NCBI GenBank assembly: GCA_963719515.1
Contig: CAVRCJ010000010.1
Span: 840,778 to 904,777 of the forward strand
Origin: an uncultured cyanobacterium
GTDB lineage: Bacteria; Cyanobacteriota; Cyanobacteriia; CAKZMO01
Length of the DNA: 64,000 bases
Direction: 5' to 3'
Of this stretch, positions 1,319 through 24,463 are shown one piece after another. Position 1 is the stretch's first letter. Every line of letters begins with the position of its first letter. The position numbers were made by a program, and so were the translations under genes. The notes below the pieces were generated by a model. The model was not told the DNA's origin and ran no database searches. It worked only from the letters and a program-made list of their open reading frames with translations.

Positions 1319-3002
1319 CGCCACTGTAGAGGTACGTCCCGCTAGCCCGCCGCTTCAGCCTGAGCCGGGTGCGCCAGACAACTGGCGACGGTTCTTTACC
1401 TTTAGCACCGACCACAAAGTCATCGGCATCCAGTACATCGTCACGGCCTTTGCCTTCTTTTTGTTTGGCGGCCTGCTGGCAATGGTGATGCGCGGTGAGC
1501 TAATTACCCCTGAGTCAGATTTAGTCGATCGCACGGTCTACAACGGGCTATTCACCATGCACGGCACCATCATGCTGTTCATGTGGACCTTCCCCATGCT
1601 CAACGGCCTGGCCAACTACCTGGTGCCGCTGATGATTGGGGCGCGGGACATGGCCTTCCCGAAGCTAAATGCGATCGCCTTTTGGATGGTGCCCGTGTTT
1701 GGAGTCATCCTCACCGCCAGCTTCTTCATCCCTGGCGGCCCGTCGCAGTCGGGCTGGTGGGCCTATCCGCCGGTGAGCCTGCAAAACCCCACCGGCAACC
1801 TGATCAATGGTCAGGCGCTGTGGCTGGTGGCGGTGGCGCTCTCGGGCATTTCCTCAATTCTGGGGGCCGTCAACATCGTCACCACGATATTTAGAATGCG
1901 GGCCCCCGGCATGGGCTGGTTCAGGATGCCCGCCTTCTGCTGGACGGTGCTCTCAGCCCAGATGATTCAGCTCATTGGGCTACCCGCGCTCACCGCCGGG
2001 GCCGTTATGCTGCTGCTGGACCTCACCGTGGGCACCGCCTTCTTCGACCCCACCCGCGGCGGCGACCCCGTCCTGTACCAGCACTTCTTCTGGTTTTACT
2101 CCCACCCGGCGGTGTATGTAATCATTCTGCCGATCTTTGGGGTATTTTCAGAGGTGTTTCCGGTCTACGCCCGCAAGCCGCTGTTTGGCTACAGAGTCGT
2201 CGCTATCTCTTCACTGCTGATCACGGTGCTTAGCGGCGTGGTCTGGGTTCACCACATGTATGCTAGCGGCACGCCGAGCTGGATGCGGATGCTGTTCATG
2301 CTCACCACCATGGCCATCTCCATCCCCACGGGCATCAAGGTGTTTGCCTGGGTGGCCACGGTGTGGGGCGGCAAGCTGCGCCTGACTACGGCCATGCTGT
2401 TCGCCCTAGGCGGGCTGTTTATGTTCCTGTTTTCAGGCATCACCGGCATCATGCTGGCCGCAGTCCCCTTCGACATCCACGTCAACAATACCTACTTTGT
2501 AGTGGGCCACTTCCACTACGTCATCAACGGAGCGGTGGTGATGGGCTTTTACGCCGCCATCTACCACTGGTTCCCCAAAATGACGGGGCGGATGTATTAC
2601 GAAGGCTTGGGTAAGCTGCACTTTATTCTCACCTTTGTGGGGGCTAATCTAATCTTTTTGCCCATGCACCCCCTAGGTCTGCTGGGTATGCCGCGCCGGG
2701 TCGCATCCTACGACCCAGAGTTTGCCTTCTGGAACGTGCTGGCCAGCCTGGGCGGATTTTTGCTGGGGGTTTCCACCCTGCCCTTTATCTTAAATATGCT
2801 CAGCTCTTGGACCCAGGGCAAGGAAGCGGGCGACAACCCCTGGCGGGCCATCGGGCTGGAGTGGCTGGTGTCCTCTCCGCCCCCCCACGAGAACTTTGAA
2901 GAGCTTCCCGTGGTAGTGTCGCCGCCCTACGGCTACGGCAGTGATGAACCGCTGGTGTCCAACAATCCCGCTGGTAATCCTGTAGAGGAGGCGATCGCAT
3001 GA
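1311..3002 (+). CDS. ctaD: Heme-copper oxidase subunit I
   Basis: TDHKVIGIQY, MHGTIM, WFYSHPAVY, WVHHM, GHFHY, GMPRR. Confidence 0.97.
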   Translation: MSNATVEVRPASPPLQPEPGAPDNWRRFFTFSTDHKVIGIQYIVTAFAFFLFGGLLAMVMRGELITPESDLVDRTVYNGLFTMHGTIMLFMWTFPMLNGLANYLVPLMIGARDMAFPKLNAIAFWMVPVFGVILTASFFIPGGPSQSGWWAYPPVSLQNPTGNLINGQALWLVAVALSGISSILGAVNIVTTIFRMRAPGMGWFRMPAFCWTVLSAQMIQLIGLPALTAGAVMLLLDLTVGTAFFDPTRGGDPVLYQHFFWFYSHPAVYVIILPIFGVFSEVFPVYARKPLFGYRVVAISSLLITVLSGVVWVHHMYASGTPSWMRMLFMLTTMAISIPTGIKVFAWVATVWGGKLRLTTAMLFALGGLFMFLFSGITGIMLAAVPFDIHVNNTYFVVGHFHYVINGAVVMGFYAAIYHWFPKMTGRMYYEGLGKLHFILTFVGANLIFLPMHPLGLLGMPRRVASYDPEFAFWNVLASLGGFLLGVSTLPFILNMLSSWTQGKEAGDNPWRAIGLEWLVSSPPPHENFEELPVVVSPPYGYGSDEPLVSNNPAGNPVEEAIA

Positions 3003-3610
3003 GCAGCATTAACCTCGATACTGTCGATCCGGCGCTAGAGAGTCAGGCCTCTCATCACGCCGCCCACGAAGAAGACCACCGCATGTTTGGCTTTGTGGTC
3101 TTCCTGCTCTCGGAGAGCGTGATTTTCTTCAGCTTTTTTGTGGGCTACATCGTTTTCAAGACCGGCACCGCCAACTGGCTGCCCGCTGGGTTTGAGGGGC
3201 TGGAGGTCCGGGAGCCTTTAATCAACACGATTGTCCTGGTGTCCAGCAGCTTCGTCATCTATTTCGCCGAGCGCTTCTTACGCCGCAACAATCTCTGGGG
3301 CTTTCGCGTCTTCTGGCTTTTGACCATGGCCATGGGCAGCTTTTTCCTGTACGGCCAGGCGGTAGAGTGGATGGGTCTGCCCTTTGGGTTTACCTCCGGG
3401 GTATTTGGCGGCGTTTTCTACCTGCTGACGGGCTTTCACGGCCTGCACGTGCTCACCGGGGTCCTGATGCAGGGCGTGATGCTGGGGCGCTCCTTCATCC
3501 CCAACAACTACGCGGACGGCGAGTACGGGGTCGAGGCGACATCGCTGTTTTGGCACTTTGTCGACGTCATCTGGATTCTGCTTTTCATTCTGATCTATCT
3601 GTGGCAGTAG
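2999..3610 (+). CDS. ctaE: Heme-copper oxidase subunit III
   Basis: TGFHGLHV, WHFVDVIW; ATGA overlap with ctaD. Confidence 0.95.
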   Translation: MSSINLDTVDPALESQASHHAAHEEDHRMFGFVVFLLSESVIFFSFFVGYIVFKTGTANWLPAGFEGLEVREPLINTIVLVSSSFVIYFAERFLRRNNLWGFRVFWLLTMAMGSFFLYGQAVEWMGLPFGFTSGVFGGVFYLLTGFHGLHVLTGVLMQGVMLGRSFIPNNYADGEYGVEATSLFWHFVDVIWILLFILIYLWQ

Positions 3611-3613
3611 CTC

Positions 3614-5140
3614 ATGATTATTGATGACCAACATTACGATGTCATCATCGTCGGCTCGGGGGCCGGAGGCGGGACGCTGGCGCAAAAGCTGGCCCCTTCA
3701 GGGAAAAAGATCTTGGTCTTGGAGCGCGGGTCGCAGATGGCCCTAGAAGAGCAAAACCGGGCCGACGTGGATGTGTTTAAAAAAGAGCGCTACCACGCGC
3801 CGGAGCAGTGGTACGACGAAGCGGGAGAGCCCTTTTCGCCGCAAACCAACTACGCCGTAGGGGGAAACACAAAAATCTACAACGCGTCGCTGATGCGGAT
3901 GCGGGAGCGCGACTTTGAAGCGGTGACCTATCAAGACGGCGTCACCCCCGAGTGGCCGCTGAAATACGCCGACTGGGAGCCCTACTACACCGCCGCCGAG
4001 CAGCTCTATCAGGTGCACGGCGACGCTAAGGCTGACCCCACCGAGCCGGCCCACAGCAGCAGCTACCCTCACCACGCCGTAAGTCATCCGCCTATCATGC
4101 AGCCGGTTGTCACGGCCATCAAAGAGGAGGGACTGCACCCCGCCCCGCTGCCCACGAGCTTGACCCAGCAGGCAGACGACCCCACCGGGGACGCAGAGGT
4201 TTTTGGGATCAATTTAGCGATCGCCCATAATAACGTGACCCTTAAAACCAACGCCAAGGTGGTTGAGCTCCACACCAACCCGGCGGGCACAGCGATTAAG
4301 GGCGTTCAGGCGGAGGTTAACGCGCAGCCCATGCTGTTTACCGGCGACATTGTGGTGCTGGCCTGCGGGGCAGTGAATTCAGCCGCGCTGATGCTCGCCT
4401 CTGCCAACGACCAGCATTCCGAGGGCTTAGCCAACCGCTCAGGGCAGCTGGGCCGCAACCTGATGAAGCACCTGATGACGGTGATTGTGGAGCGCGGGGC
4501 GGCGGAGAACGACGGGACGTTTGCCCCCAGCATCGCCATCAACGACTTTTATTGGGGCGACCCAGACTATCACTATCCCATGGGCCATATTGAAAACAGC
4601 GGCGGCTTGCTGCAGGACATCGTCTTTGCAGAGTCGCCGCCCCTGCTCTCCGTTCTGGCCCGGCTGGCCCCTGGCGCAGGGCTAAAGCGGCTGGCGACGC
4701 GCTCCATCGGCTGGTGGGCTCAGACAGGGGTCTTGCCGAACCCCGACAACCGCGTTTACCTGCAGGAAAGCCGAAAGAGAATTAAGCTGCGCTACGAATT
4801 CACCCCCAATAACCTCGAGGCCCACGATCGCCTCGTGTACCGCTGGATGGGGGTGCTCAAAGAGCTAGAAAAGCCGGGGGTTGGGCTGCGGCAGGGCAGC
4901 GTCTACCCCAGAGGAGAATCGCCCATTCAGGTGGTGGGCTACCAGTGCGGCACCTGCCGCATGGGCAGCGACCCAGCGACCGCTGTTTTAGACCTCAACT
5001 GCCGCACCCATGAGATTGACAACCTTTACGTCGTAGACAGCAGCTTCTTCCCGTCCTGCGCCAGCGTCAGTCCGGCATTGACGGTGATGGCCAATGCCCT
5101 ACGCGTCGGAGAGCACTTGGTAGAGCGGCTGACGGCGTAA
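3614..5140 (+). CDS. GMC family FAD oxidoreductase
   Basis: IVGSGAGGG, VGGNT, GRNLMKH, GTCRMG, NLYVVDSSFFP. Confidence 0.9.
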   Translation: MIIDDQHYDVIIVGSGAGGGTLAQKLAPSGKKILVLERGSQMALEEQNRADVDVFKKERYHAPEQWYDEAGEPFSPQTNYAVGGNTKIYNASLMRMRERDFEAVTYQDGVTPEWPLKYADWEPYYTAAEQLYQVHGDAKADPTEPAHSSSYPHHAVSHPPIMQPVVTAIKEEGLHPAPLPTSLTQQADDPTGDAEVFGINLAIAHNNVTLKTNAKVVELHTNPAGTAIKGVQAEVNAQPMLFTGDIVVLACGAVNSAALMLASANDQHSEGLANRSGQLGRNLMKHLMTVIVERGAAENDGTFAPSIAINDFYWGDPDYHYPMGHIENSGGLLQDIVFAESPPLLSVLARLAPGAGLKRLATRSIGWWAQTGVLPNPDNRVYLQESRKRIKLRYEFTPNNLEAHDRLVYRWMGVLKELEKPGVGLRQGSVYPRGESPIQVVGYQCGTCRMGSDPATAVLDLNCRTHEIDNLYVVDSSFFPSCASVSPALTVMANALRVGEHLVERLTA

Positions 5141-5147
5141 TGTCCGG

Positions 5148-5204
5148 TAGCGCTCTAGGCCTGACAGCGCTCTAGGCCCGGCAGCGCCTAGGCCCGGCAG
5201 CGCT
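5148..5204. repeat. Short tandem repeat (AGCGC[TC]TAGGCC unit, about 3.5 copies) between convergent genes
   Basis: tagcgctctaggcctgacagcgctctaggcccggcagcgcctaggcccggcagcgct. Confidence 0.7.
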
Positions 5205-6095
5205 TTAATTGGAGAGCTGCCCTCCGGTAACGTCGACCAGCGCCCCCGTTATAAAGCTGCTGTCCTCAGCGGCAAGAAAAACGTAGGTCGGAGCAAGCTC
5301 TTCGGGCTGAGCCGCACGCTTTAGGGCGTTGGCGTCGTCAAACCCATCCACCTGGTCGGGGGTCATGGTTGCCGGAATGTTGGGGGTCCATACGGCTCCT
5401 GGAACGACGGCGTTGACGCGAATTTTCTTCTCGGCCAGGTTGAGCGCTAGGGATTTGGTAAAGGTGTGCACCGCCCCTTTGCTGGAGGCATAGTCCACCA
5501 AAAACTTCTTGCCAATCTTGCCGACAATAGAGCCGGTGTTAATGATGACGTCGCCTTCCTGTAGGTGGGGCTGGACGGCTTTGAACATGTGAAAGTAGCC
5601 GAAGATATTGGTTTCAAACGTCTCGTGAAACTGCTTGATCGTCAGCTCGGCCAAGTCTTTTCTCACCATCTGAAAGGCAGCGTTGTTGACCAGAATGTCA
5701 ACATGGCCAAACTTTTTCATGGTCTGAGCTACTGCGTCTTCGCAGGCTTCCGGCTTGCGGACGTCCATCTTGATGGGCAAGCACTGGCCCCCCCGCTCTT
5801 CCACCAGGCTTTTGGTCTTGTTGGCGTCTTCGTCGTTGACGTTGTATAAAATGGCGACGTTAGCCCCTTCCATGGCGTAGGCGATCGCCACCGCGCGGCC
5901 AATGCCCGAATCGCCCCCGGTAATAATTGCCACTTTCCCCGTGAGCTTACCCGCCGCTTTGTAGTTGGACAGGTCGCTATCTGGCGTCAGCTCCATATCC
6001 TCTTGGCTGGCCGGATAGGGGAGCTGCTGCGCGTCGATGTCTTCGGGTTTGGGGCGCGGTTCGGATCCCGTATTGCCTATGCTTTTGCTCGCCAT
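5205..6095 (-). CDS. SDR oxidoreductase (general stress protein 39/YghA-like)
   Basis: TGGDSGIG, NNAAFQ, YASSKGA. Confidence 0.9.
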   Translation of the reverse strand: MASKSIGNTGSEPRPKPEDIDAQQLPYPASQEDMELTPDSDLSNYKAAGKLTGKVAIITGGDSGIGRAVAIAYAMEGANVAILYNVNDEDANKTKSLVEERGGQCLPIKMDVRKPEACEDAVAQTMKKFGHVDILVNNAAFQMVRKDLAELTIKQFHETFETNIFGYFHMFKAVQPHLQEGDVIINTGSIVGKIGKKFLVDYASSKGAVHTFTKSLALNLAEKKIRVNAVVPGAVWTPNIPATMTPDQVDGFDDANALKRAAQPEELAPTYVFLAAEDSSFITGALVDVTGGQLSN

Positions 6096-6269
6096 AAAAG
6101 TTCTTCCATCTTGTAAGGAATTAGATCGTACGTGAGTTCTCTTTCGGTGAGTCTCTATCTAAGGGAGAGAAGATTTGACCCGTTTGAAGGGAAGAGCGAT
6201 TGCCTAAGTTTCTCTTTTCCTGAGCCATAATTGAAGCGTTGCCGAACCGCTTTCCGAATCGCACTGCCC

Positions 6270-7349
6270 ATGAGCGCCTCTCTGCAAACCATCCTCTTCC
6301 TCGCCGCTAACCCCAAAGACACCGCCCGCCGCCGTCTGGACCAAGAGCTTCGCGACATCGACGAGGGCCTACAGCGCTCCAGGAACCGCGACCAGTTCAC
6401 CCTAGAGAAAAAGCTGGCGGTGCGCCCTCGTGATATTCAGCGGGCCATGCTGGATGTGGGGCCGCAGATTGTTCACTTCTCGGGCCACAGCGACGGGGAA
6501 ATGGGGCTGCAGTTTGAAGACGAGGTGGGCAACGCCAAGCTGGTGGACGGGGCGGCGCTGGCGAGGCTGTTTGCGCTGTTTGCCGATCAGGTGAGCTGCG
6601 TGGTGCTCAACGGCTGCTATTCCCAGGCGCAGGCCGAGGCGATCGCCCAGCATGTGCCCTACGTCATCGGTATGAGTAAGGACATCGACGAGGATGCGGC
6701 GATCGCCTTTGCGGTGGGCTTTTATGACGCGTTGGGGGCGGGGCGGGATGTGGAGTTTGCCTATAAGCTGGGCTGCACCGCCATCAGTTTGGAGGGGGTG
6801 GAGGGATATCTGACGCCTATCCTGCTAAAGCACGCTCAGGAGGAAGTGACCGCTACGCCTATCCCCGCCGCTTCTAGTCCTGTGAACCATGAGGCGGACG
6901 GCTCCATTGAGGTTTTCATTTCCTATTCCCACAAAGATGATGCCTTACAAGAGGAGCTGATCGCCCATTTGTCTAGCCTGCGGCGGCGCGGAAATATCAC
7001 CGCCTGGTATGACCGTGCTGTGGAGGCAGGAGCGGAGTGGGAAGCGCAGATTAAAGACAAGCTGGAAACGGCTCAGGTTATTCTGATGCTCATCAGTCCG
7101 GCTTTCATGGCGTCTGATTACTGCTACGACATCGAGATGCAGCGAGCGCTGGAACGCCACGAGGAGGGTACGGCGCGCGTAATTCCGGTTATTCTACGCC
7201 CCTGTGACTGGAGAGAGGCCCCGTTTAGCAAGCTAAAGGCGATGCCAGAAGACGGTAAACCCGTGACGCAGTGGGGCGATCGCGATACGGCGTTTTTGAA
7301 TGTGGTGCAGGGCATTAAACGGGCACTGGAGTCGCTGACAAAAAAGTAG
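6270..7349 (+). CDS. CHAT (caspase-like) + TIR domain protein
   Basis: ILFLAANP, HFSGH and LNGC dyad motifs; C-terminal TIR VFISYSHKD...SDYCYDIEM...PVILRPCDW; ATG at 6270. Confidence 0.88.
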   Translation: MSASLQTILFLAANPKDTARRRLDQELRDIDEGLQRSRNRDQFTLEKKLAVRPRDIQRAMLDVGPQIVHFSGHSDGEMGLQFEDEVGNAKLVDGAALARLFALFADQVSCVVLNGCYSQAQAEAIAQHVPYVIGMSKDIDEDAAIAFAVGFYDALGAGRDVEFAYKLGCTAISLEGVEGYLTPILLKHAQEEVTATPIPAASSPVNHEADGSIEVFISYSHKDDALQEELIAHLSSLRRRGNITAWYDRAVEAGAEWEAQIKDKLETAQVILMLISPAFMASDYCYDIEMQRALERHEEGTARVIPVILRPCDWREAPFSKLKAMPEDGKPVTQWGDRDTAFLNVVQGIKRALESLTKK

Positions 7350-7385
7350 ACCGTTCTTTGCGTGCTGGTGCGGGAGCAAAGGACG
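7340..7385 (+). promoter_or_regulatory. Candidate -1 programmed ribosomal frameshift signal (A_AAA_AAG + hairpin)
   Basis: Heptamer 7340-7346 directly before TAG; 10-bp stem 7352-7361/7376-7385; GGAG at 7328-7331; -1 frame continuous with ORF 7358..8242. Confidence 0.6.
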
Positions 7386-8242
7386 ACGGGCTAACGTACC
7401 GGGGGGATGATTCGCCTTTTATTACGGGGACGCCGATTTCTCATCCGCGCTATTTCTTTGGCCGACGCCGGGTCGTGAAACGGCTGTTTAACTTGCTGAA
7501 GACCCATCCGCTGCAGAATGCGGCCATTATTGGCCAGCGGCGCTCGGGAAAGACGTCGCTGCTGAACTATTTGCGCACCGTTACCACGACGCCTGCCGCA
7601 GCGCTGCGACCGGGGCAAAAGGCGGACTGGCTACCGCAGCCGGAGGCCTACCGCTGGATCTTCGTAGATTTCCAGGATGCGCGGCTGGCGCGGCGGGAGG
7701 GGCTGCTGCGGCATTTGCTAGAGGCGATGGAGTTAGCGGTGCCGGAGCCTTGTGACCTGGAGCGGTTTATGGAGCAGGTGAGCGGCTGCGTGACGCGGCC
7801 TACGGTGGTGTTGATGGATGAGATTGGGGAGGCGCTGGGCACCTACTCGGAGCTGGATGATGAGTTTTGGAATAGCCTGCGATCGCTGGCGACAACGCAG
7901 ACGGACGGAAATTTGGCCTTTGTGCTGGCGACGCCGGAGAGCCCGGTTGGCCTAGCGCGGCAGACGGGGCACAGCTCGCCGTTTTTCAATATCTTTGGCT
8001 ACACGGCGACGCTGGGGCCGTTGAAAGAAGAGGAGGCGCGGGCGCTGATGGGGCGATCGCCCATTCCTTTTATGGAGGCGGATACGGTCTGGATGCTGGA
8101 GCAGAGCGGGGGCTGGCCGATTTTGCTGCAGATTTTGTGCCGGGAGCGGCTGTTTGCCCTGGAGGAGGGGGACGATAGCGAGGACTGGCGGCAGGAGGGG
8201 CTGGCGCAGATGCAGCCGTTTACGCATTTGCTAAATGGCTAG
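7358..8242 (+). CDS. P-loop ATPase (STAND/AAA-like); possibly the C-terminal part of a frameshift fusion with the CHAT-TIR gene
   Basis: SPFITG, FFGRRR, Walker A GQRRSGKTS, Walker B LMDE, SPFFNIF, SGGWP; TTG start. Confidence 0.85.
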   Translation: MRAGAGAKDDGLTYRGDDSPFITGTPISHPRYFFGRRRVVKRLFNLLKTHPLQNAAIIGQRRSGKTSLLNYLRTVTTTPAAALRPGQKADWLPQPEAYRWIFVDFQDARLARREGLLRHLLEAMELAVPEPCDLERFMEQVSGCVTRPTVVLMDEIGEALGTYSELDDEFWNSLRSLATTQTDGNLAFVLATPESPVGLARQTGHSSPFFNIFGYTATLGPLKEEEARALMGRSPIPFMEADTVWMLEQSGGWPILLQILCRERLFALEEGDDSEDWRQEGLAQMQPFTHLLNG

Positions 8243-8500
8243 AGTTTTCTATACGGTTGCGCGGGCACGCATATTCCGCTAAAGTGCCTAGCCATGGACG
8301 TTTTTTCGTCCGATTGCACAAACCTGACACCCAAATGTTTAGCGCCCCCTGGAAGTGACGCAACACAACCAGGAGGCTGACCTCCCGCTGACATACCCAG
8401 CGAGCGGCTACAGGGATTGTATCCCGTAGCCACCCTCGCCTTGTGCCGCGTGGAGTGGCTAGATGCTTGGGTTGTCTTTCCTCTCAAAGGAGACAACCCC

Positions 8501-8767
8501 ATGACCTATGATTCTTTTAATCCTCGCGATCGCGAGGGCGGTTCGTCCTGCCCGATTATTCTGCCGGGCGACGGCGACGATGTGCTGCGGCTCATCGCCA
8601 TTGGCCCGCCCTATGCGGTAGAGAACTGCCGACTGGCACTGCATCGCTACGGGTTTGCGGAGGCGAATGATTGGTCGCAGCCGCTGCCGGGGGCGAGCCC
8701 GGAGACGATTCGGGTGGTGGACCCGCGCCACGTGATGCGGATTTTGACGAAGCGGGTGCGGCGATAA
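8501..8767 (+). CDS. Small hypothetical protein
   Basis: AAGGAG SD before ATG 8501; LHRYGFAEANDWSQPLP...VMRILTK resembles small cyanobacterial proteins I recall. Confidence 0.7.
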   Translation: MTYDSFNPRDREGGSSCPIILPGDGDDVLRLIAIGPPYAVENCRLALHRYGFAEANDWSQPLPGASPETIRVVDPRHVMRILTKRVRR

Positions 8768-8974
8768 AATGGAGCTTCGCAAGCGAACGTAGATAGGACT
8801 GGCTCGCGGGATTTTTGAAAATCCCACGAGTCGATCAAGGTATATTTGGTATTGTGGAGTCTCCAGATTATTTTGTGAGGTCCAAAAAATCGTGATGTCG
8901 GCCTACAATGATCTTGTGAGGTCTACGAATTACATAGGCTGACACAACCATTGGTATCTCTGAGGAATAGCGTC

Positions 8975-9349
8975 ATGACAGCTCACCTGTTGCCGAAACT
9001 TGATGCGTTGCCAAATAGCTTGCCCTTAGAAGGAGCAGTTCGAATTGAATTGGTGGAGGGCGTTCCAGTTTTTCGGGCATCTAGCCAAGTTCAGATTCGT
9101 ATTGAAGCGCTCTTAGATAAGCAAAAGATTACGACTTTAGATTCAAATGAAGAGCAGGAATTAAGTTCTTACGAAGAGCTTGATGACTATTTGAGCCTAG
9201 TCAATCGGATCATCCGACAAGAATTGCAATTAAAGCCATCAGTAACGGCTGCAGTTTCGCAAGATTTTCCATTGGCGGGCAGTATTTTATACTACGATGA
9301 TCCATTCGGTCCTGCAGTTGACCCCGACGATTGGGGCGCTTTGCAATGA
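8975..9349 (+). CDS. Putative antitoxin
   Basis: ATGA overlap with downstream PIN gene; acidic C-terminus YDDPFGPAVDPDDW. Confidence 0.65.
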   Translation: MTAHLLPKLDALPNSLPLEGAVRIELVEGVPVFRASSQVQIRIEALLDKQKITTLDSNEEQELSSYEELDDYLSLVNRIIRQELQLKPSVTAAVSQDFPLAGSILYYDDPFGPAVDPDDWGALQ

Positions 9350-9738
9350 TTGTTATCGATACCCACATTTGGCTTTGGTGGGTAGACAATAGTCCGAGAT
9401 TGACTCAGCACCAGCGAAAATTGCTAGAAGACCACAGGGATCAGGGCTTGGGTGTAAGTATAATCTCATGCTGGGAAGTTGCAAAGTTAGTTGAGAAGCA
9501 GAAGATTGGCTTGGGGCGATCGCTAGAGGAGTGGATGGAGGTGGCATTGAGCTATCCCGGCATTCAGCTATTAGAGCTTACGATCCCCATTGCAGTTGAA
9601 TCGACGAGACTCGTGGGATTTCACCGCGACCCGGCAGACCAATTAATTGTAGCGACGGCTAAGGTTCATGATGTTCCGCTACTAACGGCTGATGCAAAGA
9701 TTTTAAGCTACGAAGGTATCAAGCTTCTGGGAGTATAA
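9346..9738 (+). CDS. vapC: PIN-domain VapC family toxin
   Basis: IVIDTHIWLWW, SCWE, HRDPADQLIVATA, LLTAD. Confidence 0.9.
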   Translation: MIVIDTHIWLWWVDNSPRLTQHQRKLLEDHRDQGLGVSIISCWEVAKLVEKQKIGLGRSLEEWMEVALSYPGIQLLELTIPIAVESTRLVGFHRDPADQLIVATAKVHDVPLLTADAKILSYEGIKLLGV

Positions 9739-9924
9739 ATCTTTGATGTCTAATATTTTGAGTAGTGTAATTGTAGGTAGCGACAGCGTAACTCAACAAA
9801 AGCGATCGCCTTCAAATTCGCTTCAGATTTAGAGAAGCGATCGCTCTTCAAAGGACCGACCGCGTTGGGTTCCTACGCTCAACTCAACCTACGTTTGGCG
9901 CTAAGGAAAAGGTGTCAGGCTTCA

Positions 9925-12298
9925 TGACCCCACTCCAGCCTCCAAACAATGCCTACACTCACTCACCTGAGCAGCATCCTAATCTGATTCTAGGAAGCTT
10001 TCAGCTGCTTTTTTGGCTGGTTTTCTACCCTCGGCTTGGGAGAATCATATCCAGCGCCTCGACTCTTCCCTCAATAAGAACTTTCTCGCTACTGCGGCTA
10101 TTTCGCCAGCAGCGATGGCATCGCGGGCAAATCTGGAAGTTTTTGATTCAAGGATTTGTTCTTTTACCCGTCTTTTTAAGTCTGTTGACAGGCGTCGTTT
10201 CCTTCAGCTTAGGGACGTCTTCTTGAAGAGTGGCGACGGCGGGCGTGGCGTGGCGTATGGCGTGACGTTGGCGTGGCGGTAGGCGTGGCGTTGGCGTGGC
10301 GGTAGGCGTGGCATATGGCGTGGCGTTCGGCGTGGCGGTTGGCGTGGCGTTGGCGTGTGCGTAGGCGTGATGGTAGGCGTGGCGTTAGGTGTGATGGGAG
10401 ACGTGGCGTTGGCGTGGCGTTGGCGTGGCGGTAGGCGTGGCGTTCGGCGTGGCGTTGGCGTGGCGGAAGGCGTGGCGTAGGCGTGGCATTCGGCGTAGTG
10501 GTAGGCGTGGATGGGAGGCGTGGCGTGGCGGTGGTGGTGGATCGTGGCGGTAGGCGTAGCGGGAGGCGTAGCGGATGCACGGGGCTATGGGTGAACTGGT
10601 GGCGACCAGTTCTTATGTTCGCTGGACTCACTCCATGGCACATTCTTCTGTATCGCATCGATGAACTTCCGTGCTGGAAAATTTCCAAGCCTCCTTCCAC
10701 CAGACACATCGCCTTCTGGGATGAATGGCAATATCTCCCCATCCCCGATCTCGACAAGCACCTCCTCCTAGTCCTCGAGCGCAGCCCCACAGAAGGCCAA
10801 GCCGCCCTCAACTACCTCAGCAGCACCCGCCAGCGCTGGGCCGCCGATTGCCGCCCAAATCGAACTCGACACCCGCCAGCTAGAGCGCTGCGACACCCCT
10901 CAAGAATATCGCCCAAATCCACAAAGCCCTCACCCTCAGCGATCTCAGCGGCCCCGCCAACCCCCTCTTCCGCAGCTTCAACCGCCTCAGCGAAGACACC
11001 GCCGCCGCCCTCAACCAAGCCAGCCCCTACAACCAGCGCCTTGCCCTCACCGCAGTCGCCGAAAAGCCTCGACGCCCTCATCCGCGAGCTCACCCGCAGC
11101 AGCGACAAATACGCCGTCCGCTTCCGCCCCATCGCCCAGCGCTGGAGCCGCATCATCGCCCTTCACATCCAAGACCTCACCCAAGCCGCCGAGCAGCGCC
11201 AAGAAATCGACTCCCCCTACATCATCGGCGTCCCCCTCACCGAGCGTCAGGAAATCTTCGTCGGTCGCATCGATATCAGCGCCCGCATCGAGCAGCTCCT
11301 CCTCGATCGCCGCCGCCCGCCCCTATTGCTCTACGGCCAGCGCCGCACCGGCAAAACCTCCCTGCTCCACAACCTAGGCCGCCTGCTGCCCAACAGCGTC
11401 GTGCCTCTATTCGTCGACCTCCAAGGCCCCGCCTCCAGCGCCAGCGACCACGCCGGTTTTTTGTACAACCTAGCCCGTGGCATGGCCACCTCCGCCCAGC
11501 GCCAGCGCAGCCTCTCCCTCCCCCCTTTGAGCCGAGAGACCCTCACCGCCGACCCCTTCACCAGCTTCGACGAATGGCTCGACGCCGTAGAAGCCACACT
11601 ACAGGGCAGCACCGCTCTGCTCACCTTCGACGAATTCGAAGTACTCGACCAAGCCCTCACCACGGGCCGCTTCAGCGAGACCCTTGTACTCGGCATGCTC
11701 CGCAACCTCATCCAGCACCGCCCCCGCTTCAAAGTGCTTTTCGCAGGTTCTCACACCCTCGAAGAATTCCAGCGCTGGAGCAGCTACCTCATCAACGCCC
11801 AGACCCTGCACCTGGGCTACCTCAAAGATGACGAAACCCGCCAGCTAATCGAGCGGCCCTCCGCCGACCTCGCTCTCCGCTATCGGCCCGAGGCCTGCGA
11901 TCGCGTCCTCGCCCTCACGAAGGGGCACCCCTTCCTGGTGCAGCTGCTCTGCGCCGAAATCGTGGTGCTCAAAAACGAGCAGGACCCCAGCGTCCGCCGG
12001 CTGGCCACCCTTAAAGACGTCAACGCCGCCGTCCCCGAAGCCCTGAGCAGCGGCAGCATGTTTTTTAGCGACATTGAAGGGAACCAGCTCAGTGAGACTG
12101 CGACCAAACTGCTGCACTACATGGCCGCTCAAGGTGAAGGGGCGATCGCTAATCCTTCAGCGCTGGCTCAGCACTGCGACAACGCAGACTTCGCAGCAGC
12201 GATCGCCCTTTTACAGCAGCGAGAGCTAATCGACGCCGCCGAGGAGCGGGTATCAAATTCGAGTGGAGCTAATCCGGCGGTGGTTTGAGCCGCGCTAG
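9925..12298 (+). pseudogene. Membrane-anchored P-loop ATPase with G-V-A-x repeats; multiple frameshifts (assembly error or decay)
   Basis: Hydrophobic N-terminus, GGCGTGGCG repeats, SPYIIG, Walker A GQRRTGKTS, FDEFE, KGHPFLVQ; plausible C-terminus RVELIRRWFEPR* in another frame ending 12298. Confidence 0.75.
10240..10570 (+). repeat. Coding tandem repeat, about 12-nt unit GGCGTGGCG+NNN (Gly-Val-Ala-X)
   Basis: Many degenerate ggcgtggcg units in succession. Confidence 0.85.
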
Positions 12299-12373
12299 CG
12301 AGTCTGCGAGCTACTAGCGCACTACATCAGCTCACAGACCTAGAATTAAAGGGAATTGCGCACCTCCCCACAC

Positions 12374-14674
12374 ATGAAATCCTCCCCTATAACGCAAGAT
12401 CTAGTTTTGATTGGCGGCGGCCATAGCCACGCGATCGTCCTCAAGCAGTTTGCAATGAACCCGGTACCGGGAGTGCGCCTCACCCTGATTACCAATGTCT
12501 CCCACACCCCCTACTCCGGGATGCTGCCGGGGTATGTGGCGGGCCTGTATACCTTTGACGAATGCCACATTGACCTATGGCCCCTATGCCACTCAGCGGG
12601 GGCAAGGCTAATTTTAGACCGGGCCTCCGGCTTAGATTTGAGCCACCAGCGGGTGCACTGCGCTCAGCATCCCCCCATCGCCTTTGACCTCCTCTCTATC
12701 GACATCGGCAGCACCCCCGCTACCACGGGCATTGACGGCGCAGAGCACTTAATTCCGGTAAAGCCCATCTCGAAGTTTCTCACCCGCTGGGATGCCCTAG
12801 TGGAAAGTCTAATAGGGCAGCCGCGATCGCCTTTGGCCCTGGCCGTCGTGGGCGGCGGTGCGGGGGGCGTTGAGCTGGCGTTGGCGATAGAGGCCCGCTT
12901 CCGGCGGCTCAGTCAGCAGACTCAAAAAGCGAGGAATCTCGACATTCATCTGTTTCAGCGTGGGGACAAAATTCTGCCCAACCGTTCCCAAATGATGCGT
13001 CGCCAAGTCAAGCGACAGCTCCAGCAGCGCCGCATGATGCTGCACACCGGGCAGAAGGTGACCGCCATAAAGTCTTTTAAAGATTCTGGGTCTAGGCCAG
13101 AGGGCCACCCGCTCAGCGTCGTGACCCAGCAAGATAAGCTCCCCTGTGACGCGGTGTTTTGGGTGACGGGGGCTTCGGCAGCGCCTTGGATCGCCACCTC
13201 GGGCCTTGAAACCGACGGGCAGGGCTTTATTGCCGTCAATTCCGCGCTCCAGTCCTCCCACCCCAGGGTGTTTGCCGCCGGAGATATCGCCACCCTGCTG
13301 GAGCACCCTCGCCCCAAGGCCGGCGTTTTCGCGGTGCGTCAGGGCCAGCCCCTCTACGACAACCTGCGGCGATCGCTTTTAGGCCAGCCGCTAAAGCCCT
13401 TCATCCCCCAAAAGCAGTTTTTAATCTTGGTGGGAACGGGGGACGAGCGGGCGATCGCCTCGCGGGGACCGTTTGCTTTGGGGCCTTCCTCGCTGCTGTG
13501 GCGCTGGAAAGACCGCATCGACCGCAGGTTTATGGCGCAGTTTGCCCCCCAGGAGGCCAATGCTGCCGCCGATGCTGCGATGGCGTCACCCTCTAAGGGA
13601 CAGGCCCCCATCATGTCCTGCGGCGGCTGCGGCGCAAAAGTAGGCAGTGCGGCCCTCAGCGCGGCGTTGACCCGAGTTCGTGTGGAATGCTCCGGCGTCA
13701 TCCCCGCCGACGTGGTGCTAGGTCTAGAGGCCGCTGACGATGCAGCGGTGATACGCCCCCCGGCTGACCAGCTCTGGGTTCAAACCGTGGACTACTTCCC
13801 GGCGCTGATTGACGATCCTTTTGTGCTGGGACAAATTACGGCCCACCACTGCCTCAACGACCTGTGGGCCATGGGGGCCTCCCCCCACAGCGTACTGGCG
13901 ATCGCCACGTTGCCCTACGCCACCGCCGCCAAGCATGAAGAGCTGCTGTACCACCTGCTTTCCGGGCTAGTTAAGGTGCTGCATCAGGAGGGCGCGGCGC
14001 TGCTGGGGGGCCATACGATAGAAGGCGAAACGCTGGCCCTTGGCCTCACCTGCAACGGCACCGTCCCGCCCGAACGGCTGCTGCGGAAGTCCGGCCTTCA
14101 GGCGGGGCAGTCTCTGATTCTCACGAAGGCTCTGGGCACCGGCACCCTATTTGCGGCGGCGCAGCAGCAGCGGGCCAAAGGGCGCTGGATTGAAGGGGCG
14201 ATCGCCGCCATGCTGCGCAGCAACGCCGCCGCTGCGGCCTGCCTGCAGAAATACGGAGCTGCGGCCTGCACCGATGTCACCGGATTTGGCCTACTGGGGC
14301 ACCTGTTGGAAATGGTGTCGGCGACCGCAGACGCAGACGCCCAGCCGGTGGGAGTTACCCTAATGTTGAATGCTCTACCGCTGCTAGAGGGCACAGCCGA
14401 CACCCTCGCCCAGGGCATCTTTAGCTCCCTCCACCCTCAAAACCAGCAGGCCGAGATTCGCCTCCACAACCCTCAGCAGGCCCAGCTGCCGCACTATGCC
14501 GCGCTCTTCGACCCGCAGACCTCTGGCGGGCTGCTGGCGGCGGTCCCGCAGGAGAAGGCTGAGCCCTGCCTAGCGGCGCTGCAGGCTTTGGGCTATGACC
14601 ACAGCGCCATCATTGGCACCATAGACTCGCTGGGAGATCTTACCCCGGACAAACCCGTTAGGATTGAGGGGTAA
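12374..14674 (+). CDS. selD: Selenide,water dikinase fused to an N-terminal FAD-dependent oxidoreductase domain
   Basis: GGGHSH, GGGAGG, FAAGD; SelD part CGGCGAK, DDAA, QTVDYF, GGHT, DVTGFGL, DPQTSGGLL. Confidence 0.93.
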   Translation: MKSSPITQDLVLIGGGHSHAIVLKQFAMNPVPGVRLTLITNVSHTPYSGMLPGYVAGLYTFDECHIDLWPLCHSAGARLILDRASGLDLSHQRVHCAQHPPIAFDLLSIDIGSTPATTGIDGAEHLIPVKPISKFLTRWDALVESLIGQPRSPLALAVVGGGAGGVELALAIEARFRRLSQQTQKARNLDIHLFQRGDKILPNRSQMMRRQVKRQLQQRRMMLHTGQKVTAIKSFKDSGSRPEGHPLSVVTQQDKLPCDAVFWVTGASAAPWIATSGLETDGQGFIAVNSALQSSHPRVFAAGDIATLLEHPRPKAGVFAVRQGQPLYDNLRRSLLGQPLKPFIPQKQFLILVGTGDERAIASRGPFALGPSSLLWRWKDRIDRRFMAQFAPQEANAAADAAMASPSKGQAPIMSCGGCGAKVGSAALSAALTRVRVECSGVIPADVVLGLEAADDAAVIRPPADQLWVQTVDYFPALIDDPFVLGQITAHHCLNDLWAMGASPHSVLAIATLPYATAAKHEELLYHLLSGLVKVLHQEGAALLGGHTIEGETLALGLTCNGTVPPERLLRKSGLQAGQSLILTKALGTGTLFAAAQQQRAKGRWIEGAIAAMLRSNAAAAACLQKYGAAACTDVTGFGLLGHLLEMVSATADADAQPVGVTLMLNALPLLEGTADTLAQGIFSSLHPQNQQAEIRLHNPQQAQLPHYAALFDPQTSGGLLAAVPQEKAEPCLAALQALGYDHSAIIGTIDSLGDLTPDKPVRIEG

Positions 14675-14700
14675 CGTTGCCCCAATTTGTAGCCTCTTTC

Positions 14701-15780
14701 ATGCTCACCGTTGAAGAGTTTTTGCAGCGCCCTGGCCCCATCCTCGACGTGCGTAGCCCAGCCGAGTTTGCCCAAGGCCACCTCCCTGAATCGCGATCGC
14801 TTCCCCTATTCGACGATGACGAGCGGGCCCAAGTGGGCACCTGCTATAAGCAGCAGGGGCGGGATGCGGCAGTGGAGCTGGGGCTAGAGCTGGTGGGGCC
14901 AAAGCTGGTAACCTTCGCGCGTCAGGCTAAGGCTTGGGCCAGTGAGGAGGCCAATCAGGGGGCCAATCAGGGGGCCAGCCAGGAGGGCGGCCAAGTGCGG
15001 GTCCACTGCTGGCGGGGCGGCATGCGCAGCAGCAGCATGGCCTGGCTGCTGGAGACGTCCGGCCTGTCGGCAACGGTGCTCAAAGGGGGGTATAAAGCCT
15101 TTCGCCACTGGGTGCGCCAAACCCTCAGCATTTCAAAGCCTATTTTTAGCCTGGGCGGCATGACCGGCACCGGCAAAACCTTAGTGCTGACGGCGCTAGC
15201 GGCGCAGGGAGAGCAGGTGCTGGATTTGGAAGGGCTGGCCCACCATCGCGGCAGCAGCTACGGCAATCTCTGCCTCCCCCCCCAGCCCACCAACGAGCAG
15301 TTTGAGAACCGAGTAGCGGCAGCCTGGCAAGGGTTCGATCCCCAGCGACCGGTGTGGATTGAGGCAGAAAGCCGCCGCATTGGCGCCTGCCGCGTGCCGG
15401 ATGAGCTGTTCGCTCAGATGATGCAGGCTCCGGTGGTGCAGATTGGGCGATCGCCCGCCGAACGGATCGCGCTTTTGGCCGATGAGTATGGCGACGCCGA
15501 TTCCTCAGAGCTGGTGGCCGCAACGGAGCGTATTCGCAAGCGACTGGGGGGGCTGCGCACCCAGCAGGCGATCGACGCCATTCACGAGGGGGATTTGCAG
15601 CAGGCGATCGCCCTCGTGCTCTCCTACTATGACAAGACCTATCGCTACGATCTAGAGCAGCGATGCGCCCCTATTCAAGTTGTAGAGGTCACTGGACTGA
15701 GCGCCGAGCAGGCCGCTACCCGGCTGCGGCAGATTGTCCATCCAGACGCAGCAAGCCGTTTATGCAGCGCCAATTTCTGA
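14701..15780 (+). CDS. selU: tRNA 2-selenouridine synthase
   Basis: Rhodanese DVRSPAEF, CWRGGMRS; P-loop GMTGTGKT; HRGSSYG; follows selD. Confidence 0.95.
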   Translation: MLTVEEFLQRPGPILDVRSPAEFAQGHLPESRSLPLFDDDERAQVGTCYKQQGRDAAVELGLELVGPKLVTFARQAKAWASEEANQGANQGASQEGGQVRVHCWRGGMRSSSMAWLLETSGLSATVLKGGYKAFRHWVRQTLSISKPIFSLGGMTGTGKTLVLTALAAQGEQVLDLEGLAHHRGSSYGNLCLPPQPTNEQFENRVAAAWQGFDPQRPVWIEAESRRIGACRVPDELFAQMMQAPVVQIGRSPAERIALLADEYGDADSSELVAATERIRKRLGGLRTQQAIDAIHEGDLQQAIALVLSYYDKTYRYDLEQRCAPIQVVEVTGLSAEQAATRLRQIVHPDAASRLCSANF

Positions 15781-23116: not shown

Positions 23117-24463
23117 CTATGTCCTAGCGACCGAACAGCAAACTCGAAAACCAATAGTGGGATCCCGGAGGTCGGCCCCGCGCTTGCCACGGCACGCAGA
23201 GCGGCAAGGCCTAGGAATGAGATCAAGCGAACCGCCGCGTATTACACGCCTATGCTCATGCTCGTTCAGCCAAGCCGAACCGTCCGCAGGGGCATTGTTG
23301 TAATTTTTGTGCCAGGTATCTTGACACCACTCCCACAAGTTTCCGTGCATGTCATGGAGTCCGAAGGTATTAGGAGGATATTTGCCTACATCAGTCGTTT
23401 CTCTTGCTCCAAAACCATAAGGTGCAAGTCGACTGTTGATCGACTGGCCAAAGTAATAAGGCGTCTGTGTCCCAGCACGGCAGGCATATTCCCATTCGGC
23501 CTCGCTCGGCAGTCGATAAGGTGTCTTGGCGTACTCGCTAAGCCGAGCACAAAACTCTTGAGCCTCTCTCCACGAAATCTGCTCAACAGGATAAAGAGCC
23601 TCTTTGGAGTAAGAGGGTTCAGCCTCTAATTCTTGCTTCACCTTCGGTAGTGCAGCAACAGCCCGCCACTGCATCTGAGTTACCTGGTATTTCCCCATCC
23701 AGAAAGCCGAAATATTCACCTCATGCAGAGGGCCCTCGGAGTCTAATCGTTTCTCTTCATTTTCTGAGCTACCCATAGAAAATACGCCGCCCGGTATTCT
23801 CACCATGTCTAGAGTGACATCGTCGCTCAAATCCTCTCGGTAGTATTCCGCCTGACCTAGTCGTCGCTCTATCTCTACACCCTCTGCGTTGACCACGATA
23901 ATGTCGAAGGTAAACCTCGGATGAGATAGCTCTGGCTGCACTGTAGGCTGAGCGATAGGTATTTCAGGAATTGCAGGCACAGGCTGTGTCGATTCCTCTA
24001 GCAGGCCTTTAATGCCCTTTATCAAACGCGAGACATCTGTATGAAACCTTGGGTCGTAACCTACCCGCGTCCCATTGCGTCGGGCCAATGCTTGCAGTGA
24101 TTCTGGCAACTCAAATCGATCTGGGATCATTGCCCCTTCTAGTAAAACTGGAATAACTGATATGTCTTGTCTAAGTGCAGACTCTATTTCAATACGTACG
24201 AAATCGTCAGGGTTGTCTAGACGCCGTTTCCCACTAGAATCTGTTACTGTCAACCATGTCTTACCAATGATGACAAGCAACACCTGACAACGACTTACCG
24301 CACGGTCTAGGAACTCTGCAAAGTCAACACCAAGAGGAATGCTGTCTATGTCTTTGAAAACGTGCTCTTGACCAAATTCAGTCACTAAGCGATCGTATAT
24401 CCGACCAGTATCAGAAATGCTATCACTGCGGCGATAGCTGATGAAGATTGATCCACCAGGCAT
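23117..24463 (-). CDS. TIR + FGE-sulfatase (C-type lectin fold) domain protein
   Basis: IFISYRRSDS TIR with RIEIE; RLPSEAEWEYACRAG, GLHDMHGNLWEW, RGGS, GFRV; lower GC. Confidence 0.9.
   Translation of the reverse strand: MPGGSIFISYRRSDSISDTGRIYDRLVTEFGQEHVFKDIDSIPLGVDFAEFLDRAVSRCQVLLVIIGKTWLTVTDSSGKRRLDNPDDFVRIEIESALRQDISVIPVLLEGAMIPDRFELPESLQALARRNGTRVGYDPRFHTDVSRLIKGIKGLLEESTQPVPAIPEIPIAQPTVQPELSHPRFTFDIIVVNAEGVEIERRLGQAEYYREDLSDDVTLDMVRIPGGVFSMGSSENEEKRLDSEGPLHEVNISAFWMGKYQVTQMQWRAVAALPKVKQELEAEPSYSKEALYPVEQISWREAQEFCARLSEYAKTPYRLPSEAEWEYACRAGTQTPYYFGQSINSRLAPYGFGARETTDVGKYPPNTFGLHDMHGNLWEWCQDTWHKNYNNAPADGSAWLNEHEHRRVIRGGSLDLIPRPCRSACRGKRGADLRDPTIGFRVCCSVART

Follow-up and report, generated by a model that had tools for sequence, protein, structure and literature searches.

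A candidate programmed -1 frameshift joint between a CHAT-TIR effector and a STAND-like ATPase in cyanobacteria

Results

Organization of the CHAT-TIR and ATPase1 reading frames

The window analysed here is a whole stretch of 64,000 nucleotides (nt) from contig CAVRCJ010000010.1 of an uncultured cyanobacterium (assembly GCA_963719515.1; 5.28 Mb in 21 contigs), in which a CHAT-TIR effector gene is followed, in the -1 frame, by a STAND-like ATPase (ATPase1) whose nearest relatives are cyanobacterial. The junction of the two frames carries a candidate programmed frameshift site, and all features of the junction lie on the forward (+) strand. The CHAT-TIR open reading frame (ORF; 6270..7349), which defines the 0 frame, encodes a short product of 359 amino acids (aa) with a CHAT domain at about aa 6-181 (Pfam PF12770) and a TIR domain at about aa 214-357 (TIR_2, PF13676); in PADLOC it matches the ThsB1 TIR-like model (1.8e-60) and chat (2e-22). 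H73 (6486-6488) and C116 (6615-6617) align to the places of the His and Cys motifs in the CHAT protein of PDB 8tl0, and E289 (7134-7136) aligns to the Glu of the Cat1 TIR; we take all three to be the catalytic positions. The alignments bear out that the CHAT His-Cys pair and the TIR Glu are retained, as the initial annotation had claimed, with protease and NADase activities being predicted.

The 3′ end of the CHAT-TIR ORF reads ACA AAA AAG TAG. It consists of a slippery heptamer A_AAA_AAG of the X_XXZ_ZZN type in the 0 frame (7340..7346) and the TAG stop right behind it (7347..7349), the TA of which goes into the GTA codon of the -1 frame. The -1 frame (7340..8242) holds 300 open codons, beginning with a linker of about 25 codons and continuing into ATPase1, and the predicted CHAT-TIR-ATPase1 fusion is 657 aa long. 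Five nt 3′ of the heptamer lies a stem-loop of 10 base pairs (bp) with one G-U pair (7352..7385; arms 7352-7361 and 7376-7385). A GGAG resembling a Shine-Dalgarno (SD) sequence occurs within Leu-Glu codons 8 nt 5′ of the heptamer (7328..7331). On re-reading of the sequence, the positions first reported for heptamer, stop, -1 frame, stem and GGAG were all correct, and no start codon other than a TTG within the 5′ arm of the stem precedes the first conserved ATPase1 motif.

The ending A_AAA_AAG_TAG exceeds chance expectation in this genome. It closes 2 of the 3713 ORFs that reach 150 aa, and internal Lys-Lys pairs are written A|AAA|AAG in 45 of 1032 instances. Among 45 tRNA genes a single tRNA-Lys was detected, with the anticodon UUU, which suits ribosomal slippage on AAG.

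ATPase1 matches AAA_16 (PF13191, 3e-8) above the Pfam cut-off and nSTAND1 below it. Walker A (7532-7558) and the Asp-Glu of Walker B (7817-7822) lie between an N-terminal F-x-G-R and a G-x-P motif. The chain stops about 45 aa past G-x-P, and no C-terminal sensor repeats are detected on it by Pfam, whereas the NB-ARC-TPR classes described below do have them. No PDB entry matches ATPase1 in sequence. A moderate structural model (predicted local distance difference test 64) has ORC/Cdc6 as its best match (Z 13.3, root-mean-square deviation 3.4, 163 aligned), followed by a plant resistosome (Z 10.1) and Avs3 (Z 8.6), which suggests a fold of ORC/Cdc6-to-STAND type.

Accuracy of the assembly at the junction

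A frame change at an A run can be produced by a homopolymer error, the true run being A7, and the initial annotation raised this worry in view of indels in the neighbouring gene. Short-read contigs from four sediment runs of one study, possibly from the source site, were compared with the window over 3000-15000; no RNA run was listed as containing the stretch, a result without bearing on whether it is expressed. Contig X1 record 4 (6852-7534) and contig X4 record 29 (7300-7450) cross the junction with 0 substitutions and 0 gaps, and the A6G run is therefore reproduced by two contigs from two runs. Since these runs may come from the source site, the stronger evidence against an error is the identical A6G-stop in many independent assemblies, complete Acaryochloris plasmids among them. 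The worry was justified for the neighbouring gene, ATPase2 (9924..12298, + strand), which encodes hydrophobic N-terminal repeats and a second ATPase. The contigs differ from the window there by 1 nt at five indel sites (10021, 10844/10847, 10907, 11062 and 12245/12247), and the reading frame of intact relatives departs from that of the window near 10850, 10905, 11067 and 12234; contig coverage of about 10218-10618 is very thin. The apparent breakage of ATPase2 is probably a product of assembly errors. While these indels lend the A7 explanation some plausibility, the gap-free contigs and the heptamer-stop recurring in homologs rule it out at the junction, where its probability is negligible.

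Conservation of the heptamer, the stop and the -1 offset

Homologous loci, genomes and database proteins are designated by L, G and P numbers. The ATPase1 set was assembled from 80 GTDB loci retrieved with the ATPase as query and a further 15 from a group of 41 related genomes, five loci being present twice. In nine other genomes (G001-G004, G007, G009, G032, Sphaerothrix gracilis and L023) a TIR ORF ends in A_AAA_AAR_TAR with ATPase1 in the -1 frame, and full-length split cases are also present in 3 of 80 metagenome TIR loci. After removal of duplicates, matches short of the TIR end and loci with less than 120 nt downstream, 139 distinct TIR junctions were counted, 57 of which end at the TIR. 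The heptamer-stop and its -1 offset, proposed at first from one locus, proved to be conserved: A_AAA_AAR stands ahead of the stop in 32 of the 57, and 25 of these 32 open into a -1 ORF of 150 aa or more, two run to the contig end and five are short. For the 23 TIR-terminal loci lacking a heptamer, the -1 ORF is long in one and short in 22, and the remaining two loci, with A_AAC_CCT, both have a long one. Among the short frames following a heptamer, L117, L158 and L167 contain a cut-short ATPase1 start, and L007 and L143 contain no NTPase.

The stop, TAG or TAA, immediately follows the heptamer in 31 of the 32 loci, the exception being L124. The run is A6 followed by G in nearly all loci, with A7 in L006 and L124, and the codon 5′ of AAA specifies Ala, Thr, Ser, Pro or Leu, always with A as the third base. 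The linker to the first ATPase1 motif varies from 24 to 50 codons with the frame kept throughout. Of the 119 closest database TIR proteins, 52 terminate exactly at Lys-Lys, 30 have another ending and 37 continue. The TIR endings NSL-stop and NK-stop occur as well.

Most other ATPase1 homologs carry an N-terminal domain in frame, which may be a segment of 85-100 aa (helix-turn-helix-like by eye), a TIR (L026, L084) or a CHAT domain (L010); those of about L039-L064 are known as lengths only. The long product is thus a normal architecture for ATPase1. In-frame homologs had been named in the initial annotation as grounds for abandoning the frameshift; such homologs were indeed found, but they are natural equivalents of the long product and do not refute the shift. 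Similarly, the database proteins P0055, P0063 and P0084 read through in frame as Lys-Lys-Val, which is the -1-frame reading.

The in-frame relatives could also mean that an ancestral fusion lost one base and was inherited as a broken gene, the ATPase part being a pseudogene or expressed by accidental slippage, and decayed downstream frames at some heptamer loci would agree with this. ATPase1 is nevertheless intact, with Walker A and B invariant in 33 aligned sequences, 11 split loci among them, and the split is maintained in several families of cyanobacteria and alongside four NTPase partners, its stem undergoing compensatory changes. We consider this explanation largely refuted already and very improbable.

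Some searches yielded related or negative results. A pattern scan for A6R-stop alone in two genomes was uninformative, and a phylum-wide DNA search of 401 genomes gave no further split locus. A search with P0045 in 144 genomes of one Nostocaceae-like family returned mainly other CHAT proteins. Two CHAT proteins of about 357 aa (L287 and L289, in G664 and G774) end in A_AAA_AAG_TAA with just 31 open -1 codons, and in their relative L288 the run has moved behind a TGA. ATPase1 frames without ATG before the conserved motif were seen at L086:4692-5840, L087:4722-5852 and L080:4926-5888, two of which open with a segment resembling a coiled coil; at these three loci no ORF of at least 60 codons was found to overlap the frame from upstream.

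The 3′ stem and the upstream SD-like element

The hairpin appears in the minimum-energy fold. A stem alignment was made of 22 heptamer loci, omitting L009 (long loop), L007 and L143 (remnants), L162 (near-duplicate), L124, L144 and L251-L255. When the window helix is imposed on the 22 sequences, 85.1% of cells are paired, against 72.2 +/- 1.6 in shuffled alignments (reached in 0/500), and sliding the helix along the alignment gives 40-52%. Both-sided changes occur at 10 of 11 helix pairs. RNAalifold, unaided, finds the same helix with compensatory changes at 7 of 8 pairs. Independently of any alignment, a stem of 8 bp or more without interruption begins 3-9 nt past the heptamer in 23 of 27 long -1-frame loci and at 6 of 97 junctions with no heptamer (4/22 and 2/75 in two groups). 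The 10-bp stem with its one G-U pair was thus described exactly, and the covarying stem anticipated in homologs was found. The 3′ structure expected of a -1 frameshift site is present, and it is predicted to stimulate the shift.

The GGAG lies where the initial annotation placed it, yet its proposed role as a stimulator finds no support. According to sections of PMC5009743, an upstream SD 9-14 nt before the site is optional and occurs in dnaX and about 56% of insertion sequence (IS) elements. The spacing here, 8 nt, is just under that range, and an SD-like 4-mer 5-14 nt upstream of the heptamer occurs in only 12 of 30 loci. The GGAG is probably not a conserved stimulator, and this part of the proposal was dropped.

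Other partners, polarities and motifs of the joint

A class-wide search of 401 genomes, followed by retrieval of regions, indicates that the candidate recoding is wider than was first proposed, extending to further NTPase types, CHASE2, both polarities and a weaker C_CCU form. The TIR-heptamer-stop-stem arrangement leads into a -1-frame nSTAND1-like ATPase in L122 and L123, into NB-ARC-TPR in L118, L138 and L140-L142, and into a second NB-ARC/NACHT-TPR type in L144 and, by motif, L124. Four more Acaryochloris plasmid loci share the joint, with plasmids pREB7 and pREB8 of the cultured A. marina MBIC11017 among the carriers, and at a Calothrix plasmid locus the -1 frame after the TIR heptamer runs into CHASE2. 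Some homologs carry EAD1, TRADD-N and NB-ARC-TPR.

The reversed polarity, known from dnaX, is seen in five in-frame TIR-NTPase genes that keep GCA_AAA_AAG and meet a -1 stop 3-9 codons on. Stems of 9-10 bp are present in three of the five; in the reversed-polarity group a stem of at least 8 bp is found in 3/7, which is weaker than the first impression. In three soil-type metagenome loci and L147, C_CCT precedes a stem and then a -1 NB-ARC or its start, and in L024 a CHAT protein is joined to ATPase1 through C_CCT and an 11-bp stem. According to part of PMC4066793, the tetramer C_CCU is genuinely shifty in E. coli, though weaker. A quick tree built from 77 TIR rows places every A_AAA_AAR NTPase class, together with the five reversed genes, on a single branch of 47 rows (Shimodaira-Hasegawa-like approximate likelihood ratio test 95), and three C_CCT loci and the CHASE2 case fall outside it.

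Start codons downstream of the heptamer

The main and serious rival of frameshifting is coupled re-initiation, in which a ribosome stopping at TAG would melt the stem, leaving the purine-rich 3′ arm free to bind a ribosome for initiation of a stand-alone ATPase at a GTG or TTG. The 5′ arm of the stem is within the footprint of a terminating ribosome. In 12 heptamer loci an in-frame GTG stands at -1-frame codon 18-23, 3′ of the purine-rich arm, with a strong anti-SD duplex in L018 (-9.2 kcal/mol). In RefSeq, the two parts are annotated as separate coding sequences (CDS) in three of the four Acaryochloris records, and the fourth has no downstream CDS. At the present locus and L016, on the other hand, there is just a TTG in the stem (duplex -2.0), and 11 of the 29 scored loci (L255, having no NTPase motif, was left out) have no start codon ahead of the first conserved NTPase motif. 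Re-initiation would also leave unexplained the invariant A_AAA_AAR, the single offset despite linker indels, the heptamer and stem in reversed-polarity genes, and the in-frame N-terminal domain on most ATPase1 homologs. As the sole explanation it is therefore judged unlikely, although frameshifting and re-initiation could both be at work in some members.

An A-run gene elsewhere in the genome

Alternatively, RNA polymerase could add an A within the run, so that some mRNAs are in frame. A likely case of such transcriptional slippage exists outside the window, on the minus strand of G000:C14 at about 69620-69640 (L307:5620-5640). An acidic ORF, 788 aa from its ATG and with no Pfam match, ends there in an A10 run and is followed by a 539-codon ORF with what we take to be an Hsp70/actin-like N-terminal motif (no Pfam hit). 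Among 25 homologous loci, drawn from many families, 24 have a run of A9-A10; the upstream ORF is offset by -1 in 15 loci, has the other offset in six and is in frame in three, with no constant stem. Since all three offsets and no constant stem are the pattern expected of polymerase slippage, this gene looks like a conserved instance of it and forms a contrast to the TIR joint, where the offset is -1 only and the stem covaries. The A run at the TIR joint does offer a substrate, yet it is A6 ending in G nearly everywhere, and the slippage described in sections of PMC5009743 occurs on runs of 9. Transcriptional slippage is a poor candidate for the joint, less probable than re-initiation.

An identical pair of split ORFs, in which A_AAG_GGC lies close to the stop, was also observed twice, on the minus strands of G000:C1 271790 and C8 43403; both copies presumably belong to an insertion sequence, probably of IS630 type. 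Other TIR/CHAT paralogs are frame-split inside a domain (G000:C6 31693-31695 and C11 109389-109402) and are errors or pseudogenes.

ATPase2 and the neighbouring genes

Where 2.5 kb or more of sequence is available behind ATPase1, which is the case for 69 loci, a second ATPase gene follows in 66. Of four intact ATPase2 relatives, three contain 3-5 hydrophobic segments and the fourth is masked in part. We propose a two-component NLR-like system: ATPase2 would be the membrane-associated partner, ATPase1 would bear a variable effector, and the shift would supply CHAT-TIR in free and tethered form. Between the ATPase genes of the window are an 88-aa ORF with no Pfam match (8501-8767) and a small ORF with a PIN-domain gene (PF01850; 8978-9738), probably a toxin-antitoxin pair. 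A Pfam scan limited to the three downstream small ORFs and ATPase2 detected no ThsA domain in these neighbours. On the minus strand, 23117-24463 encodes another TIR protein, which carries a fused FGE-sulfatase domain.

Discussion

Comparison of the homologs shows a frameshift signal, its conservation, a uniform -1 offset, covariation of the stem, in-frame equivalents of the fusion and a two-ATPase locus. Programmed -1 ribosomal frameshifting that yields products of 359 and 657 aa is very probably the explanation. A ribosome translating CHAT-TIR would arrive at A_AAA_AAG with tRNA-Lys(UUU) in both sites and encounter the stem 5 nt past the heptamer. A fraction would slip one base back to AAA_AAA, pass the TAG and read ATPase1 to give the 657-aa fusion, and the remaining ribosomes would terminate at TAG to give the 359-aa protein. 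The initial proposal came through the sequence-level tests, with no A7 at the junction and with heptamer-stop, offset and stem conserved. That the slippage takes place at the ribosome, and at what rate, we infer from these patterns; a set ratio may fix the stoichiometry of effector and ATPase.

Several points weigh against this interpretation. It is drawn from sequence comparison, and no PADLOC or NCBIfam model matches ATPase1 or ATPase2. Folded by itself, the hairpin does not reach significance (z -1.33, equalled by 24/200 shuffles), so that support for the stem comes from conservation, and the structure scored on the homologs was taken from the window sequence. As the homologous loci are kin, their counts describe a pattern, and the shuffle counts are not probabilities. 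The five heptamer loci with only a short -1 frame, the downstream GTG codons, and the poor conservation of the SD-like element described above also count on this side, as does L028 (239-1621), where a TIR, a TAG and a same-frame ATPase1 follow one another with no heptamer. L028 has no start codon before the conserved ATPase1 motif, and may represent a nonsense mutation or stop read-through.

The frameshift proposed here resembles that of E. coli dnaX (tau/gamma) in its A_AAA_AAG, 3′ stem-loop and two products with a common N-terminus. In some bacteria the dnaX shift gives the long product, with the 0-frame stop right after the site (sections of PMC5009743), and this predicted 'reversed' form has the same arrangement as the present locus. 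The differences from dnaX are that an upstream SD is not conserved at this joint, that an effector and an effector-NTPase would be made in place of clamp-loader subunits, and that the cassette is found with several downstream partners. The OrfA/OrfAB genes of IS3 and IS1 likewise use overlapping 0 and -1 frames to make a short upstream protein and a long fusion. A_AAA_AAG and A_AAA_AAA account for 72% of the heptamers of the IS3/IS1 families, and A_AAA_AAG is among the most efficient in E. coli (part of PMC4066793). Neither frame here contains a transposase domain by Pfam, and immune-type domains are present instead.

The domain content is shared with the EAD/TRADD-N/STAND conflict systems of multicellular bacteria (Kaur et al. 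2020, PMC7159879, and 2021, PMC8195603; main texts), which have caspase/TIR effectors, adaptors of EAD or TRADD-N type, STAND NTPases bearing TPR or WD40, CHASE2 and an enrichment in cyanobacteria. This likeness, together with the domains themselves, suggests an immune role. TRADD-N genes adjoin a separate AP-ATPase-TPR gene (PMC8195603, section 9). In contrast to the recoding proposed here, these papers treat effector and NTPase as fused or separate genes, and the word 'frameshift' is absent from their main texts. Avs/bNACHT proteins also place an N-terminal effector on a STAND-like NTPase, and the full tripartite layout exists in the NB-ARC-TPR classes; ATPase1, unlike these proteins, has no C-terminal sensor, pairs with a second ATPase gene and matches no PADLOC model, its defence role being putative. 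The TIR is similar to Thoeris ThsB, the PADLOC ThsB1 match (1.8e-60) covering profile positions 3-146 of 319. The two-ATPase locus may fit the MNS clade of paired cyanobacterial STAND genes. This clade (Npun2340/2341) is named in PMC8195603.

No report of frameshifting between TIR/caspase effectors and STAND NTPases was found in the literature within reach, which left out most subscription papers, and an undiscussed cluster in the supplement of the GeneTack survey (PMC3711429) is possible. Taken singly, the mechanism and the domains are known; no publication that combines them in NLR-like genes came to light.

More speculatively, CHAT-TIR tethered to ATPase1 could oligomerise with, or under the control of, the membrane-associated ATPase2. 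Free CHAT-TIR could be recruited by TIR-TIR contacts as an amplifier, or act as a competitor that sets the threshold, in a counter-invader or cell-death response. Plant TIR-NLR genes such as tobacco N and RPS4 produce a truncated TIR form and a full-length NLR from one locus by alternative splicing; the mechanism there is eukaryotic splicing as opposed to ribosomal recoding, and the likeness is an analogy only.

A broader proposal, for and against which we see the balance as even, is that of a portable recoding joint between effector and NTPase modules. It would survive partner swaps (ATPase1, nSTAND1-like ATPase, two NB-ARC-TPR types and CHASE2), work in both polarities and have a second, C_CCU form in distant TIR and CHAT-adaptor genes, with free and tethered effector both required for activation. 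If true, it would be a bacterial counterpart of TIR-NLR alternative splicing, and many 'effector-less' STAND and 'orphan' TIR genes in the databases would be mis-annotated halves. For instance, the downstream start listed in the Acaryochloris plasmids removes the conserved N-terminal motif of NB-ARC, and a defence screen in which one annotated CDS is cloned would miss the working protein. To our knowledge, few cases of functional -1 frameshifting in non-mobile bacterial genes are known. A conserved case at the effector-NTPase joint would give bacterial innate immunity a translational layer of control, and makes it a testable question whether the free and tethered forms of a toxic effector set the threshold of activation.

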